Under the pieces are notes generated by a model. The model did no database searches. It was given only the letters and a program-made list of their open reading frames with translations, and had not been told where the DNA came from. From the sequence record OK322699.1: DNA of 64,000 bases; one strand, given 5' to 3'. Positions 1,050-61,739 of this stretch are shown piece after piece; within the stretch, counting starts at the first letter, position 1, and each line of letters begins with the position of its first letter. The translations under genes were made by a program, and so were the position numbers. Source of the DNA: Escherichia phage Sa157lw.

Positions 1050-1095
1050 ATTTCAGCTCACTAAATACTGAAAAATCGTTCAGAAGGAAACTATC

Positions 1096-1975: not shown

Positions 1976-2026
1976 ACTACTAAGTAATTTCAACTTAACT
2001 GAATATCAATGTAAGGAACGAGCATC

Positions 2027-4989: not shown

Positions 4990-5017
4990 TTTACTTCTTC
5001 AATAAACCCCGTATACT
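4990..5017 (+). promoter_or_regulatory. early sigma70-type promoter (-35 TTTACT, 16-bp spacer containing TTCAATAA, -10 TATACT)
   Basis: sequence read directly; member of repeated promoter family. Confidence 0.55.
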
Positions 5018-5066
5018 TCATTCCATAAGCAGCACAACACTGACTCTGAAATGAAGGAACTACACC

Positions 5067-5504
5067 ATGACCACAGCAAAAGTTACCATCTACGCTTTCG
5101 ACGCTTTCTCTAAATTTGACGCATTCGTCTCCTCCGCATTTGGTATCAAAGAAGTTGAAGCAGAGAAAACTTTCTGTGGTGGACTCGGCAAGTTTGCCAA
5201 CCTGAGTTTATCCCTGACAGAGTTCATGAAATCTCTTGAAGGTCACTTTGACGCCGAAACCATTCGCACTTCCTTACTCAAGAAAGACGGCACCCCTCGC
5301 AAACTGTCTGGCAAGACTAGAATTTACGATGCTGACGGCTTTACTGTGTCTGTGCATTTTACTGAAGAACCTGTGTACGAACTTTTCAGCGGGTCTGAGG
5401 ACCTCACTCACTATGTGGTCAGGAAAGGCGATTCCCGCCCTGTGTTCGAATCTGGCGACATCCTCGCCGCTATCAAAGAACTTGCGCGTCTGAATAGCCT
5501 CTAA
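5067..5504 (+). CDS. hypothetical early protein
   Basis: 145 aa; downstream of promoter and conserved leader GAAGGAACTACACCATG. Confidence 0.45.
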   Translation: MTTAKVTIYAFDAFSKFDAFVSSAFGIKEVEAEKTFCGGLGKFANLSLSLTEFMKSLEGHFDAETIRTSLLKKDGTPRKLSGKTRIYDADGFTVSVHFTEEPVYELFSGSEDLTHYVVRKGDSRPVFESGDILAAIKELARLNSL

Positions 5505-5579
5505 CAGACGTTTGTTCTAAACCTTTGAACGGGGTATGGTTAATCCATACCCTATCCCATACAAATAGAGGACTTTATC

Positions 5580-5924
5580 ATGACTACAAGAATCCCACCG
5601 CAGTCGATTGAAATCTCGAAGGTCGTCAATATCGAACCTCGTCGAGGAACCCGTAAACCCCGCGCGGGGCGTCATCTGACCACCAAGCTGGATCTTCTGA
5701 AACAGAAGTTCGGCGACCACAGTGTGTTTACCCGTATCCGCAACGCATTAAAGGAAGGGCGAACCGAGTTGGAGCTATATCGTCCGAACGGTTCGACTCG
5801 AGCGTATCAGACCACCGACGGTTTGCTGGAACTGATCCGCCTATCAGGGATGAACATAGAACCCCGTTCATCAGGAACCCCGCTATGCAGCCTGTACGTC
5901 ATCAGCAATCTTGGGGCGCTGTGA
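5580..5924 (+). CDS. hypothetical protein
   Basis: 114 aa ORF. Confidence 0.4.
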   Translation: MTTRIPPQSIEISKVVNIEPRRGTRKPRAGRHLTTKLDLLKQKFGDHSVFTRIRNALKEGRTELELYRPNGSTRAYQTTDGLLELIRLSGMNIEPRSSGTPLCSLYVISNLGAL

Positions 5925-11270: not shown

Positions 11271-11648
11271 TCATTTATCTTGATTCACATAGGCGGGGGT
11301 TGCCTCGCCGTCTTTGTTAGAACCGAACAAACAACCCATCGTGTTGATGCATTGTTGTAGAACTTCCGGCTCAAGAATCTGACTCATCAGTTCTTCATTA
11401 GATTCCATCAGCGGGATGACTTTCACTTCCCGCGCCTGTCCTTGTTGGATAATGCCGATATACAGACCTTTGGTGTCTGGCAGTAACGGGATCACCATCA
11501 TTGGTGTCACAACAAACTTAGAAGTGCGATAGAGGCTGTGTAAGTAAACACCTTTCAATGTCGGTTGTTCTTCTACCAACATTGAAGACATTGAAAGGTT
11601 GGATTCTTGAACTTCCCCCACTGCATATAAACCCACGAATTGTTTCAT
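11271..11648 (-). CDS. hypothetical protein
   Basis: 125 aa ORF convergent with uvsW. Confidence 0.4.
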   Translation of the reverse strand: MKQFVGLYAVGEVQESNLSMSSMLVEEQPTLKGVYLHSLYRTSKFVVTPMMVIPLLPDTKGLYIGIIQQGQAREVKVIPLMESNEELMSQILEPEVLQQCINTMGCLFGSNKDGEATPAYVNQDK

Positions 11649-30204: not shown

Positions 30205-30234
30205 AAAGCCGAGGTTAATGCCTCGGCTTTTTCG
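30205..30234 (+). terminator. rho-independent terminator AAAGCCGAGG ttaatg CCTCGGCTTT + TT
   Basis: 10-bp stem and T-run. Confidence 0.75.
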
Positions 30235-30281: not shown

Positions 30282-32003
30282 GTGACAGCATTTAATCAAT
30301 ACCGAAAGGCGATTGACGCCATAGGCCGTAAGGTTCCTATAGAAGAAATACAAAGCCTTGCCAAAAACGAATTTCCATATGACAAGGCGAACCAAGGCCA
30401 GATGGAATGTATCGTCGAAGCCGTTGATGCCTTGGTCAACAAAAAGGTCAAACACGTGATCATTGAAGCCCCAACTGGCGTGGGGAAATCTTTGATTGGG
30501 ACAACAATTCATAAAGTGATTCGCCATTTGGTTTTACAGGCCGATCCTTATGGGCAATTCCGCACGTCTATCAGTACGCCCACCAAAGGTCTACAAGATC
30601 AGTATGCTGCTGAAAAGGCGGTGGCGATAGACATCCTGAAAGGCAAGAAGAACTATCGTTGCCACGTACACCCAGATGTGTATTACAACGCCGTGCAATG
30701 CCGTATAGCATGCCGCGACGGGCATTGTAGCAAACGCCGTTGTCCTTATGTACAGGCGCGCAATTTATGGACTGATATTTCGTCATTGCGTTGCACTAAT
30801 GCAGCTATGATGATTGAGATGTGCACCACCATCTGTATGAAGCCTGAAAACCGTTCCGATATGCTGATCTTAGACGAGTGCCATAAGATGCCCTCTACGC
30901 TCCTAGAGCACACGATAATGGAATACAATACAAAGGCTGTGGATGGGCTGCGAACTATCCCCGAAGGGAAGGAGATAGTCTCTATCATTGCCGATATCGT
31001 AGAACGCACCAAGGACTATGTCTTGGGCAAGTTGTATTCCTTGTCCGGTGAAATGCATTCGATGTTTGAAGACCTCCATCTTAAAGTGGAGTCTTTGTTG
31101 GAAGTTCTTGAAGAATTGGTTGAAGATGACCGCCTGAGTGAAAGCCAGGTGATGAAACTCGCCGACATTATCGATGTACTACACAATCTGAGTGATTATT
31201 GTGGTATTATGTCTCAGACAAAGGCCAGCACCTTTATCGTACAGGAAAAGGGAGATGACTTTATTCGGTTTAAACCCGTCATGCCTTCTGATGTAAGTGA
31301 ATTTGGATTGTTCAGGAAAGCCGATTACCATGTTCATATGTCGGCAACAATCTGCGGAATCGATTCATATGCCCGTTCCTTGGGTATCCGCCAGGGGGAT
31401 TATCATTCAATACAGATTGGAAATCCAATCCCAATTGAAAATCGGAAAGTCAACTATATGCCCATCGTTAAGATGACCAACAACATGGGCGATTATGAAA
31501 TGAAAAGGCTGACGGAATACATTGATGAAATAATCGCATTCCATCCAGGGCAATCTGGCATCATACATACGGTGAGCTATGATCGCGCATTAGCAATACA
31601 AAAATTCAGCAAATACCAGAACTTTATCCATGTGCCACGCACTCGAAAGGCGTTGATGGATATTATGGAAAATGCCTTCAGGACAAAAACACCTTGTGTT
31701 ATTGCCAGTCCGGCCATGGAAGAAGGATATGACTTCAAAGGTGATTACAGCCGATTCCAAATACTGATCAAAGTTCCTTACGATTATTTGGGTGATCCAT
31801 TGATCGCACATATTAATTCAGTGGATCCGTCTGCGTACTTCCGCAACGCAGTATTGCGCATTGTTCAGATGTGCGGACGTTCGGTCAGGGGTGTGGATGA
31901 CTGGGCTGCAACATACATAATCGATTCTTCCTTTGAATCTCTTATGATGCGCAACCCAGAGTTCTTCCCAACCTGGTTCACCGATGCAGTATTTGAAGTT
32001 TAA
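30282..32003 (+). CDS. DinG/XPD-like SF2 helicase with Fe-S cysteine cluster
   Basis: 573 aa; Walker A EAPTGVGKS, DECH box LILDECHK, Cys cluster CHVH..C..C..C..C. Confidence 0.55.
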   Translation: MTAFNQYRKAIDAIGRKVPIEEIQSLAKNEFPYDKANQGQMECIVEAVDALVNKKVKHVIIEAPTGVGKSLIGTTIHKVIRHLVLQADPYGQFRTSISTPTKGLQDQYAAEKAVAIDILKGKKNYRCHVHPDVYYNAVQCRIACRDGHCSKRRCPYVQARNLWTDISSLRCTNAAMMIEMCTTICMKPENRSDMLILDECHKMPSTLLEHTIMEYNTKAVDGLRTIPEGKEIVSIIADIVERTKDYVLGKLYSLSGEMHSMFEDLHLKVESLLEVLEELVEDDRLSESQVMKLADIIDVLHNLSDYCGIMSQTKASTFIVQEKGDDFIRFKPVMPSDVSEFGLFRKADYHVHMSATICGIDSYARSLGIRQGDYHSIQIGNPIPIENRKVNYMPIVKMTNNMGDYEMKRLTEYIDEIIAFHPGQSGIIHTVSYDRALAIQKFSKYQNFIHVPRTRKALMDIMENAFRTKTPCVIASPAMEEGYDFKGDYSRFQILIKVPYDYLGDPLIAHINSVDPSAYFRNAVLRIVQMCGRSVRGVDDWAATYIIDSSFESLMMRNPEFFPTWFTDAVFEV

Positions 32004-32767
32004 TAACCTGCAATAAACGATAAATGGCACTTGATATTTGGTTCAAGTGTCGTTATCGTGATGATCATATTATCCACATCTTGACTAAAAGATATATTTG
32101 CTATTGGTTTAGTCTGAACGTGGTTGTACAGGCTGTATATCAAATCTTCACCACGGTATCCGACTTTACCATCAGTATCCTGCCAATGGCCTAACGTGGA
32201 TTCATGAGCATGTACTCGGAATTCTATCATATGGAACAATGCTTTTGGGATTGTTTTCAGTATGCTGGTTCCGACAACAGGGATATCAATAGCAGAGTCG
32301 TTGGAATTGCCCTCATATACTGAAGCCCAACCAAATGTTGGATCTCCTCCCGCCACGGGAGTTCTCTTCCAGTATTGGAATTCTGGATTACCCGAAGCGT
32401 TCTTTTGCAGAAGGATTACTTCACCGCCTTCAAAATTAGAAGTGTCTATATCATCACGTGCTAATAAATCAGCTGGAGAACCAATAAATTTCCAGGTTTC
32501 GCGATCTAAAATAGACTTATAATAATCGGTGAATACGTTGCTGTCGTTAGCTGCATTGATTGCGTCTTTAAGACCTTCACCTGTGACCATCTCATTGAGT
32601 TTTAGCCACATGTTTTTGACAGCTGACGCAGCTGCGACTTGACCTTCAGTCCCACCCGCCGTGTAGTCATAAACGATGTCCAGCTTTTGTATGGAATCAT
32701 TTATAGACAAGAGCAAACGCTCAATTTCTGGGGCGGTCAGACTGAAACGATATGCGCGTTCTGACAT
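32000..32767 (-). CDS. hypothetical protein (isolated minus-strand gene)
   Basis: 255 aa ORF convergent with helicase. Confidence 0.45.
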   Translation of the reverse strand: MSERAYRFSLTAPEIERLLLSINDSIQKLDIVYDYTAGGTEGQVAAASAVKNMWLKLNEMVTGEGLKDAINAANDSNVFTDYYKSILDRETWKFIGSPADLLARDDIDTSNFEGGEVILLQKNASGNPEFQYWKRTPVAGGDPTFGWASVYEGNSNDSAIDIPVVGTSILKTIPKALFHMIEFRVHAHESTLGHWQDTDGKVGYRGEDLIYSLYNHVQTKPIANISFSQDVDNMIITITTLEPNIKCHLSFIAGY

Positions 32768-32809
32768 GATTCGTTCCTCATCGATAAAACCAGTTTGGGA
32801 TACTTATAC

Positions 32810-33337
32810 ATGATTGAAATATACACTGACGGGGCATCTTCCCCGCAGAAGACACAAGCCGCAGGTTGGGCATTTGCTATCGGTCCAATCACTGGAGAGC
32901 AATGGAAAGTGTTTTATGGGTATTTACCCCCACCGTCAACGAATAATATCGCTGAGTTGCTTGGGGTTATAAACGCCTTGAAGATTCTATGGAAATTCTC
33001 TAATTGTGGGGAACGCTGTATTCCCTCAGCCAGTATTATATCCGACAGCCAATATGTTATCAATAGTGTTTTGGAGTGGCGTAGAAAATGGGAATATGAA
33101 GGAATGCCGCCTAAGAACACAGAACTTCTGCTCGAGTTGTTCGATTATTATGACAAAGTTTGTTCAATTTGTGAACTTGAATTAAAATGGGTGAAAGGTC
33201 ATGCGGGGAATATCGGCAACGAAATCGCAGATCAGTGGAGCGTCAGAGCCAAAGAAAATAGCTCGATGGTTCTTGAAAATAATCGTTTCCTGGTCAGAAA
33301 GGTTGTTGGTTCTTTCAATGAATTCATTGGTATTTGA
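32810..33337 (+). CDS. ribonuclease HI-like protein
   Basis: ORF 32795..33337 trimmed; YTDGAS .. NNIAEL .. SDSQYV .. WVKGHAGNxGNExAD motifs. Confidence 0.7.
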   Translation: MIEIYTDGASSPQKTQAAGWAFAIGPITGEQWKVFYGYLPPPSTNNIAELLGVINALKILWKFSNCGERCIPSASIISDSQYVINSVLEWRRKWEYEGMPPKNTELLLELFDYYDKVCSICELELKWVKGHAGNIGNEIADQWSVRAKENSSMVLENNRFLVRKVVGSFNEFIGI

Positions 33338-33348
33338 GGATTATCACG

Positions 33349-34119
33349 ATGGGTATGAATTTTGTAGACAGGGGTGATAACGTCACCAAATATTTCACTG
33401 ACGAAGATAACGATCGAGTTGTGGGGATATTGCGTGATTGGATCCCTGCTCGTAAAAAGGCATTAGCCGAAGGAACACCCCTACCAAGAATCCCCAATTA
33501 TGTGGCCATGAATGTTCAGATGATAATCAAGAATATGAGTATGCGTTACAACTACCGTGATTATCCATATCGTGAAGACATGGTGAGTGAAGCGGTTGTG
33601 AACATCCTTCGTTACCTTCACACCTTTGATGTTAGCCATATCGGCAAGAAAGGAAAGATCAACTTCTTCTCTTGGGTGACTATGTGTGCCGATCGCTCAT
33701 TCGCCAAGAAACTCACGAGTGAAGAAGAACACAACTACATTAAATTGCGTTCCTTTGAAGAAGCAGGTGGGTTCGCAGCTTTATCGGATGACCCAGACTT
33801 CCAACAACAAACCTTCGTTGATAGCACTGGGATAACGATGGACTTTCGTGAACGCATCGGTAATTTCGAAAATAAGAAAGAAGCCCAGCGTGAAAAGGAA
33901 CGCCAAAAGCAAACGGCTATCAAAGAAGAGGAAAAGAATAAGAAAATCCCTCGCGGTATACTTCGATGTCTTACGAAGAGTGTAAATACCATTACCGCTG
34001 ACGCCGAAGACAATTCAGATAATGACTTCGGCTCTACTCAATTTAGTCTTGAAGATATAATGGACAGCCCCACATTGTTAGCCGAATCAGTTGGAGAAAA
34101 GAATAATGGCGATTGCTAA
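33349..34119 (+). CDS. 55: late promoter sigma factor gp55-like
   Basis: ORF 33334..34119 (TTG) trimmed to ATG; central region aligns to T4 gp55; located before gp47/gp46; Lys/Glu-rich C-terminal extension. Confidence 0.55.
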   Translation: MGMNFVDRGDNVTKYFTDEDNDRVVGILRDWIPARKKALAEGTPLPRIPNYVAMNVQMIIKNMSMRYNYRDYPYREDMVSEAVVNILRYLHTFDVSHIGKKGKINFFSWVTMCADRSFAKKLTSEEEHNYIKLRSFEEAGGFAALSDDPDFQQQTFVDSTGITMDFRERIGNFENKKEAQREKERQKQTAIKEEEKNKKIPRGILRCLTKSVNTITADAEDNSDNDFGSTQFSLEDIMDSPTLLAESVGEKNNGDC

Positions 34120-53366: not shown

Positions 53367-53747
53367 TCAATTTGTCCGTTTCAACCATATGGTGTCTGTT
53401 ATCGGCTCTGGGTTGTTGACCACATAAAACGTTATGGTTACACCCAGAGAATGATAATCTTCAGACAATGACACATCAACTGATTGTATCTCCGCTCTCG
53501 GTTCAAATAAAGCAATCGCGTCTTCAACTTTGTTTTTAACATCAACCTGAATTGTGGGATTCGTATTTTCCCCCAGCATGGTATACAGCCCAGCCCCGAT
53601 ACTTGGGTATGTCGGCCAATCCCCAACTGTTGTCATCACGATATTTCGTACGGATTGCAACACGGCATAGACACCTGTTTTCTTTGTGACATCTTTGGTG
53701 ACCGGATGCATGCCAAACTTCAGGTCAATGTCCTTGTACTCTTTCAT
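53367..53747 (-). CDS. 25: baseplate wedge protein gp25 (GPW/lysozyme-like fold)
   Basis: ORF 53367..53780 trimmed to MKEYKDIDLKF behind AAGGGG RBS; pattern resembles T4 gp25. Confidence 0.65.
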   Translation of the reverse strand: MKEYKDIDLKFGMHPVTKDVTKKTGVYAVLQSVRNIVMTTVGDWPTYPSIGAGLYTMLGENTNPTIQVDVKNKVEDAIALFEPRAEIQSVDVSLSEDYHSLGVTITFYVVNNPEPITDTIWLKRTN

Positions 53748-53811
53748 GTTAAACCCCTTTGGATATTGCCTCTCCGGCACGAGAGGGCATTATCTACCCT
53801 CGCCAGTGTAA

Positions 53812-56748: not shown

Positions 56749-56797
56749 AATGTATCTCCACGGTATATTGTAACCATATTTATAATGAGGACCGAAA

Positions 56798-60580: not shown

Positions 60581-60608
60581 AAGCCCCTTCGGGGGCTTTT
60601 TAGTTTTT
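60581..60608. terminator. bidirectional terminator AAGCCCC ttcg GGGGCTT flanked by T-run (+) and A-run (-)
   Basis: sits between convergent gp32 and the minus-strand gene ending at 60600. Confidence 0.7.
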
Positions 60609-61739
60609 AACGACGTCTTGTAACAAACCGAGTAAACTACTCTTCTCAGACGCCGTCAGGTTATCATTGCCTAATATATCCCTCTGGATGCCGATAGAGA
60701 TCCTTTCGAAGTCTGCCAGGCTGATACCCGCCAAATTATTTACAAGCTGATCGAGTTGCTTGTAGGCCAGTAGGGCTTCACCTGTAAAGTTCCCTTCCTT
60801 AATCTTTTTATACAGCTGTCCGGCTTTTGACGCTGCGGTTTCCCAATCTCCGGAAGCAAGAGCATCAGCAATGCCCAAAGGAAGAAAGTCGCTGGCGAGG
60901 CTGCGCGTTTCATATTCAGTCTCCGATAATACTTTATTGTAAGAGAACGATATATTGTACTGGTTAAATTGGTCGGCGGCACTTTTGTCGAGGTCGATGG
61001 AACTGAAGTTAATAGGATGAGCCTCCGTCACATAAACACGGTGCACCACCTGGTCTTCTGTATCCATTTGCTCTATACAAATATCAGTCACGAAATCTTC
61101 GTAATAACCCATCTTGGTCGTATATGGGTCGAATATCAAATTCTTCCATTTATCCATGACCGACTTTTCATAATAGTCGTTGGCAAGGAGAAATGATAAC
61201 TCCAGATCAACGTTTGTTTTGTTGTTCGGCATCTTAATATGGTTGCCGTTATTTGTCATTGGCGTTGTATCAATCCCAGTACCAGGCAAAGAAGCAACCA
61301 TACACATCATTTGTAAGGAACGAGACGTCTGGTTTGTCCCTCCAAAGAAAGCGTTTACAATACGGGCGCTTTGTTTGAACAGATCCCCAAATGATGAAGA
61401 TGAAGGATATGCGTTGCCGTCATTGGATAGAGTCGCATTAGAATCGAAAATACCAGGCGGCAACGGGATTGTAACACGAAATCTGTTCTTGCGGGAAATC
61501 CCCCGCTGAAGCAGTTGCGTTAGAAAATTGCGATAGTCTTCCACGATGAGGACTCCATTTAAATAATATATCTGCTGATATTTATAAGGAGTTGACAAAT
61601 GGCCAAGAACGCTATGGGTGAAGAAGACCCGTTGTTGCTTCCTGCCGAGATGGACGCCCCAGAATTGGTCAAGCGTTACATCCGCAAATATCGTCAACAT
61701 TTTGGACCAGAAGCGAAACGTAATATCCGTCGGTCTCAC
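60600..61739 (-). CDS. hypothetical protein (start uncertain)
   Basis: 379 aa maximal ORF; N-terminal ~140 nt overlaps the + gene at 61599, so true start is probably internal (candidates near 61310 or 61259). Confidence 0.4.
   Translation of the reverse strand: MRPTDITFRFWSKMLTIFADVTLDQFWGVHLGRKQQRVFFTHSVLGHLSTPYKYQQIYYLNGVLIVEDYRNFLTQLLQRGISRKNRFRVTIPLPPGIFDSNATLSNDGNAYPSSSSFGDLFKQSARIVNAFFGGTNQTSRSLQMMCMVASLPGTGIDTTPMTNNGNHIKMPNNKTNVDLELSFLLANDYYEKSVMDKWKNLIFDPYTTKMGYYEDFVTDICIEQMDTEDQVVHRVYVTEAHPINFSSIDLDKSAADQFNQYNISFSYNKVLSETEYETRSLASDFLPLGIADALASGDWETAASKAGQLYKKIKEGNFTGEALLAYKQLDQLVNNLAGISLADFERISIGIQRDILGNDNLTASEKSSLLGLLQDVVKN

Follow-up and report, generated by a model that had tools for sequence, protein, structure and literature searches.

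We describe a lone gene on the minus strand of Escherichia phage Sa157lw (OK322699.1), at positions 32000..32767 of the 64,000-nucleotide stretch analysed here (the window, numbered 5' to 3' along the strand given), where it lies between the genes for a DNA helicase and an RNase H. This is almost certainly a conserved late virion gene, and it very probably belongs to the core, vertically inherited late genes of the Ackermannviridae, encoding a component of the virus particle. As a conserved structural gene of this family it was already known; the sole new element is the likely homology of the C-terminal domain of its product to that of T4 gp9. The features of the gene itself are as follows.

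32000..32767, minus strand: coding sequence of a 255-amino-acid virion protein with an ATG start (open reading frame; orthologue of Vi01_105, LIMEstone1 ORF93 and Sajous1 gp203; phrog_3833)
32006..32296, minus strand: codons 158-254, C-terminal beta-sandwich domain, probably homologous to the T4 gp9 C-terminal domain (PF23618-like; hhalign)
32775..32779, minus strand: Shine-Dalgarno sequence GAGGA, 7 nt 5' of the ATG (sequence; GAGGA or AGGA kept here in relatives)
32795, minus strand: predicted late transcription start, giving a 28-nt 5' untranslated region (6 nt downstream of the box, by T4 late-promoter geometry)
32801..32808, minus strand: putative T4-type late promoter box TATAAGTA, with one mismatch (7/8) to TATAAATA (sequence and conservation)

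Orthologues of the product have been detected in virus particles. LIMEstone1 ORF93 (28.3 kDa) was identified in virions by mass spectrometry with 40.8% coverage and eight unique peptides, and, according to the authors, all 12 unknown structural proteins of this phage have virion counterparts in ViI (PMC3296691). Sajous1 gp203 was represented by 39 spectra in virions purified on CsCl; a neck protein gave 33 and the tail lysozyme 20, and the counts of several baseplate proteins were lower as well (PMC10892097). The protein encoded in the window has the same sequence as Vi01_105 (100% identity; 'conserved phage associated protein') and is about 99% identical to Sajous1 gp203 (a value taken from the 99.4% nucleotide identity of the region) and 83.5% identical to both LIMEstone1 ORF93 (G379_gp126, 'unknown structural protein') and phiSboM-AG3 orf00124. 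One record, that of SeF3a, labels the protein 'baseplate wedge protein', whereas those of Vi01, LIMEstone1, Sajous1 and AG3 assign no function.

A tblastn search found the protein in 356 phage records, and all nine annotated Ackermannviridae genomes inspected that have the helicase/RNase H cluster carry the gene in the same slot and orientation. The slot is kept in Kuttervirus, Limestonevirus LIMEstone1, Agtrevirus AG3, Taipeivirus KpS110, Nezavisimistyvirus phiEa2809 and Miltonvirus phiMAM1, and three Vibrio Ackermannviridae retain both slot and orientation at 28-35% protein identity, with one small additional gene between the homologue and the helicase. The comparison of relatives for presence or absence, which the original prediction from the sequence had proposed as a check, returned the gene in the same position in every Ackermannviridae genus inspected. 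The family was widened by searching 1.84 billion representative proteins exhaustively with a profile, which recovered only 57 clusters, most of about 245-260 amino acids; a second, word-indexed protein search contributed only five further sequences, all distant. The family is small and restricted to phages. Distant homologues with 25-33% identity occur in two Logan contigs of uncultured phages, L017 (positions 5001-5747; 112.7 kb) and L019 (5001-5765; 168.9 kb), as lone opposite-strand genes amid those for thymidylate synthase and dUTPase or for dCMP deaminase and topoisomerase. The lone antisense layout follows the gene even beside these different neighbours. No conserved partner gene was found: the convergent neighbours in the Vibrio phages, in L017 and L019 and in Acinetobacter phage nACB2 are related only pairwise.

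The minus-strand reading frame is a real gene and not a chance one, because residues 1-255 align with positions 1-255 of the phrog_3833 profile (E = 1.2e-164), non-synonymous divergence lies far below synonymous divergence, no long reading frame occupies the plus strand of the same interval (at most 86 amino acids within 32000..32767) and orthologues are found in virions. All 37 aligned relatives match phrog_3833 as well. Against orthologues of four other genera, the proportion of non-synonymous differences (pN) is 0.10-0.27 and that of synonymous differences (pS) is 0.74-0.82; we give these values in place of dN/dS, which was not computable for most pairs, since the synonymous sites are saturated. 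This pattern of substitution indicates purifying selection. Nor is the gene foreign in composition: its GC content (0.419) and codon adaptation index (0.70, with the surrounding replication genes as reference) compare with 0.42-0.45 and 0.67-0.73, respectively, in the neighbouring genes for the helicase, RNase H, gp55 and gp47.

In T4, late promoters consist of an 8-bp box without a -35 element, spanning approximately -13 to -6; some of the promoters listed depart from the consensus at one position, variants are active in vitro and have been connected with 5' ends of RNA in vivo, and late transcripts are of either polarity (PMC2988020). In the window, the box TATAAGTA lies 33 nt upstream of the ATG of the gene and 1 nt outside that of the RNase H gene. 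The exact octamer TATAAATA occupies the aligned position in LIMEstone1, Ag3, KpS110, phiEa2809 and phiMAM1, the three Vibrio phages carry TCTAAATA, CCTAAATA and ACTAAATA, all ending in TAAATA, and contigs L017 and L019 have TATAAATA or TTAAATA upstream of the homologue. Across the aligned relatives the distance from box to ATG is 23-38 nt; the LIMEstone1 record annotates the aligned site as 'putative late promoter', and among the IMG/VR Kuttervirus contigs, the nine that match this context all carry the G variant. In the Vi01 sequence, assembled from annotated pieces for the motif counts, the 6-mer core TAAATA separates late from early genes: it is found 12-60 nt upstream of 18 of the 45 late-class genes, a class made up of virion and assembly genes and of unannotated reading frames in structural clusters or opposite to early genes, as against 3 of the 57 early-strand genes (Fisher p = 1.7e-5). 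The distances from core to start codon in Vi01, 21-49 nt, include that of the box described here. The apparent genome-wide late consensus of Vi01 is NCTAAATA or TATAAATA, resembling the variant of Aeromonas phage Aeh1 described by Geiduschek and Kassavetis (PMC2988020); according to the genome paper of CBA120, the late consensus of the family was at that time still to be identified (PMC3184105). Two narrower candidates were rejected. The exact TATAAATA is too strict as the Kuttervirus late box, with only three sites in the window and four in assembled Vi01, and TAAGTA as a general late variant is statistically unsupported (1/45 late-class versus 1/57 early-strand genes).

A spacer scan of the minus strand upstream of the gene found no sigma-70-like promoter, and scans for sigma-70 promoters and terminators around the gene gave counts no higher than in shuffled sequence. 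The original prediction had proposed that the gene has its own promoter, perhaps inside the start of the RNase H coding region. A promoter near that start is retained here, as a putative T4-type late box at 32808..32801 kept across genera; a sigma-70 class promoter is not, and the box falls just short of the coding region. The phage also has homologues of the T4 factors concerned: the gp55 homologue is encoded two genes away, and gp33 (Vi01_069c) and gp45 (Vi01_135c) are both annotated in Vi01 within the stretch covered by the window.

Late in infection, host RNA polymerase associated with gp55, together with gp33 and the gp45 clamp, would open TATAAGTA at 32808..32801, and transcription would begin near 32795 on the minus strand without a -35 element. 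The mRNA, with its GAGGA ribosome-binding site, would then be translated into the 255-residue product that is built into virions. An opposite orientation combined with packing without a spacer would be the usual T4-like way of embedding single late genes in early or replication clusters, and the layout would work since the converging units are active at different times. T4 late units likewise have an 8-bp box about 30 nt 5' of the start codon, lack a -35 element, run opposite to the early genes and encode structural products, in phages that encode gp55, gp33 and gp45 homologues; they differ by the one mismatch in the Kuttervirus box, the activity of which is here predicted from the motif. A literature search found no transcriptome of an Ackermannviridae infection.

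We hold with good confidence, though less firmly than the virion assignment, that the C-terminal domain of the product is homologous to the gp9 C domain. An AlphaFold2 model built on a diverse alignment of 37 sequences has a mean pLDDT of 86, exceeding 90 for residues 160-255, and superseded a first run on a shallow alignment (55-97% identity) with a mean of 68 and a poor N-terminal half. The N-terminal half is modelled as four helices with short strands and the C-terminal half as a beta-sandwich. When the family was aligned by hhalign to a profile of 35 gp9 sequences, residues 158-254 matched gp9 176-281 with 94.2% probability (E = 1.2e-7); against T4 gp9 alone the probability was 55%, and T4 gp10 gave no match. 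The structural matches in BFVD include gp9 connectors, and the top-ranking matches, by structure and by profile alike, are to gp9 specifically. PF23618 (T4_gp9_10_C) is the sole Pfam family matched by more than one family member (5/37; best score 17.8 bits versus a cut-off of 25 bits), and one of the 37 members matches the gp9 connector PHROG (phrog_967). A Pfam scan of the protein itself found no family, PDB sequence searches with both family profiles returned nothing or only chance Kelch-repeat matches, and none of the 37 members matched PF07880, which covers the coiled coil and XD1 sandwich. In T4, gp9, the tail fibre connector of the baseplate wedge, is a trimer whose C-terminal domain docks the long tail fibre and whose N-terminal part sits on gp7. 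Compared with T4 gp9 (PF07880 and PF23618; PDB 1QEX and 9f4a), the present protein differs in its unmatched N-terminal 150 residues and in its setting, as long tail fibres are absent from the Ackermannviridae and the gene lies in a replication cluster, not beside the wedge genes. A role at the baseplate or as a fibre adaptor is suggested by this similarity only tentatively, and we would place it slightly short of probable. The most likely form of such a protein would be a trimeric adaptor or a short knob at the baseplate periphery; we infer its trimeric state, location and partner by analogy. That an adaptor derived from gp9 persists in the Ackermannviridae, its gene lying at a distance from those for the rest of the baseplate, is more doubtful still.

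The setting of the gene is defined by the following features.

30205..30230, minus strand: terminator-like hairpin between an HU-like gene and the helicase gene (10-bp GC-rich stem with A/T tracts on both sides)
30282..32003, plus strand: DinG/XPD-like SF2 DNA helicase, convergent neighbour (Pfam Helicase_C_2, ResIII and DEAD; phrog_2488)
32000..32003, both strands: TTAA containing both overlapping convergent stop codons (sequence)
32810..33337, plus strand: RNase H of HI type, divergent neighbour (Pfam RNase_H, E = 8e-25; phrog_531)
33349..34119, plus strand: gp55-like late sigma factor (phrog_234, 'late sigma transcription factor', E = 1e-53; annotation of Vi01_103c)

The layout reported in the original prediction held up throughout. 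The gene had been called the only minus-strand gene in about 20 kb, which understates its isolation: the nearest non-shadow minus-strand reading frames in the window are at 11271..11648 and 53367..53780, and in the Vi01 annotation Vi01_105 is the sole opposite-strand coding sequence among 58 (Vi01_078c to Vi01_135c, about 42 kb). Its stop codon indeed overlaps that of the convergent helicase gene, the helicase TAA being at 32001-32003 and that of the gene reading from 32002 to 32000, and the gap of about 40 bp to the divergent RNase H gene measures 42 nt (32768-32809) from the RNase H ATG at 32810; a TTG at 32795, an earlier possible RNase H start, is used in none of the annotated relatives. 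The same 4-nt stop overlap is found in LIMEstone1, Ag3, KpS110, phiEa2809, the Vibrio phages and contigs L017 and L019. On the minus strand there is no terminator-like site between 32000 and 30230, and the hairpin at 30230..30205, the first such site downstream of the gene, looks like a bidirectional intrinsic terminator; as no site precedes it, a late transcript may run antisense through the helicase gene. The window is a segment of a Kuttervirus genome; in the 3 kb around the gene, its identity to Salmonella phages Vi01, AR2819 and Sajous1 and to Escherichia phage ECML-4 is 99.1-99.4%, and matches to this region were obtained in 246 phage records. Relative to Vi01 (NC_015296), coordinates in the part of the window from about 11 to 32 kb shift by several hundred bases with distance from the gene, and the homologue of Vi01_136, for instance, is about 400 nt off its predicted position; the window therefore derives not from Vi01 but from a close relative carrying indels. 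On the plus strand, 806 nt (32004-32809) without a reading frame precede the genes for RNase H, gp55, gp47 and gp46, and there is one 9-of-12 sigma-70-like match at 32031-32059, right after the helicase stop codon. Transcription of these four genes may depend on read-through across the late-gene antisense or on an unrecognized middle promoter.

Several observations weigh against the reading of the gene as a late virion gene with a gp9-type domain. With regard to expression, the Kuttervirus box has a G at position 6, and TATAAGTA occurs as the sole such octamer in the assembled Vi01 sequence; in Acinetobacter phage nACB2, whose homologue is the most distant of those annotated, the gene runs in the same direction as its neighbours and lacks an upstream TAAATA box; and we infer the late timing and start site of the gene from sequence features. 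With regard to the fold, none of the family members reaches the Pfam gathering score for PF23618, and for the N-terminal 150 residues no resemblance could be detected to the N-terminal or middle (XD1) domains of gp9, nor, in profile and database searches, to anything known. Furthermore, the gp9 C-like sandwich also matches the C-terminal knobs of many fibre-like proteins, so that the fold does not fix the location of the protein in the virion. Finally, reviews describe the Ackermannviridae as being without gp9-gp11 (PMC11721090). With this the adaptor proposal is mildly at odds, whereas it fits the reports that gp9/gp10-like N-terminal modules of the Ackermannviridae reside on the tailspike TSP4 (PMC8825819, PMC8432352).

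The isolation and tight packing of the gene had initially suggested a moron-like insertion. On such a reading the gene would be a recently acquired accessory, dispensable for the phage, that lodged with a promoter of its own between two replication genes; the promoter-like element as well as the absence of a Pfam family would agree with this. Morons such as bor and lom of lambda and those of the HK97 type are variable among close relatives, are often of odd composition, carry a sigma-70 promoter and a terminator, and serve the lysogen. The present gene resembles them in standing singly between two genes of a module and in having a promoter to itself; the polymorphism, odd composition, sigma-70 promoter with terminator and benefit to a lysogen do not apply, the phage being a T4-like myovirus of virulent habit. 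The insertion scenario is refuted by the conservation of the gene in the same place across relatives: it has the same slot in seven Ackermannviridae lineages, and none of the genera inspected departs from this position, even where identity falls to 28%; tblastn found it in 356 records, its composition and codon usage are those of its neighbours, it has neither a sigma-70-like promoter nor a terminator of its own, and its product is a virion protein. We regard this scenario as having practically no chance of being correct. The genuine mobile, presence/absence element of the locus is a homing endonuclease gene elsewhere in the cluster, situated between the RNase H and gp55 genes in Salmonella phage Mutine (L034, 2649-3371) and absent from the corresponding site of the window (about 33338-33348); BRM 13312 has a similar match, in two pieces. 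Only marginally more credible is that the product has no structural role and, as a late assembly factor or the like, simply accompanies the particles through purification. Both proteomic studies did find a few non-structural proteins (ligase, PhoH and RegB among them), but those of LIMEstone1 had less than 5% coverage, far from the 40.8% and eight peptides of ORF93, the Sajous1 count exceeded those of the neck and several baseplate proteins, and the virion counterparts of all 12 LIMEstone1 unknown structural proteins in ViI speak against co-purification too.

A more serious competitor accepts the protein as a virion component and denies it the adaptor function, assigning it instead to a short fibre, prong, whisker or head/neck decoration, with the sandwich as a generic knob. 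We consider this possible, albeit unlikely: the best structural and profile matches are specific to gp9, one family member matches the gp9 connector PHROG, and there is no signal to capsid decoration families. The layout could also be regulatory, its position and orientation being selected for and not just tolerated, through a late transcript running antisense through the helicase gene, or through the 806-nt untranslated gap on the early strand, which as a polar barrier would retard the expression of RNase H, gp55, gp47 and gp46. The lack of a minus-strand terminator-like site before 30230, the absence of any plus-strand reading frame or sigma-70-like promoter from 32060-32809 (750 nt before RNase H) and the deep conservation of the order of the gene, RNase H and gp55 are all compatible with such a function. 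Nevertheless, the specific neighbours are not required, because distant homologues keep the lone opposite orientation in wholly different neighbourhoods and the nACB2 homologue is co-directional with its neighbours, and a simpler account exists in that an orientation opposite to the early genes is common among late genes; selection for the layout as such therefore appears highly improbable. Under the preferred reading, that of an embedded late virion gene, the gene could converge on the helicase gene without a spacer, since the activity of the two units is expected to be separated in time.

In genomes of the T4 type, a closely packed gene that stands alone on its strand denotes a late gene embedded in an early cluster and is no sign of horizontal acquisition; flagging morons by such layouts would produce false positives in these phages. 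A late-promoter consensus that can be tested in Kuttervirus, NCTAAATA or TATAAATA, also emerges, and a conserved virion protein that lacked an assigned function gains a probable gp9-type C-terminal domain. If the adaptor proposal is true, the docking domain of gp9 type, joined to an N-terminal anchor of a new kind, would attach either the 'prongs', as yet uncharacterized, or some of the branched tailspike complex to the baseplate. The protein would then fill a gap in the apparatus by which the host is recognized and could serve to engineer it. The host range of Ackermannviridae is engineered via the tailspike complex, which makes the gp9-type domain worth checking; a literature search found no cryo-EM structure of an Ackermannviridae baseplate.

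Late genes opposite to early neighbours occur elsewhere in the window, and the layout described here is ordinary. Examples of late boxes in the window are located at 1060-1067 (plus strand), 55466-55459, 56784-56777 and 61586-61579 (minus strand) and 61558-61565 (plus strand). The gene for a gp54-like baseplate tail tube initiator (about 60600..61544, minus strand) is a second lone opposite-strand late gene, situated between the gp2 end-protector and ssb genes, with an exact TATAAATA at 61586..61579; the divergent spacer that it shares holds back-to-back late boxes, TATAAATA and TTTAAATA (plus-strand interval 61558-61575), in the same geometry as at the locus of the virion gene. The gp26 hub gene likewise has an exact TATAAATA at 56784..56777. 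The peptidoglycan-binding endolysin gene Vi01_086c (window about 46.7 kb; L001, about 35725) belongs to the few early-strand genes that have a near-consensus late box, here TTTAAATA at a distance of 30 nt upstream; the early-strand cluster may accordingly contain a late promoter in its interior. The major capsid gene has CTAAGTA 40 nt upstream (window 1979-1994, plus strand), with the same A-to-G variant as the box of the virion gene.

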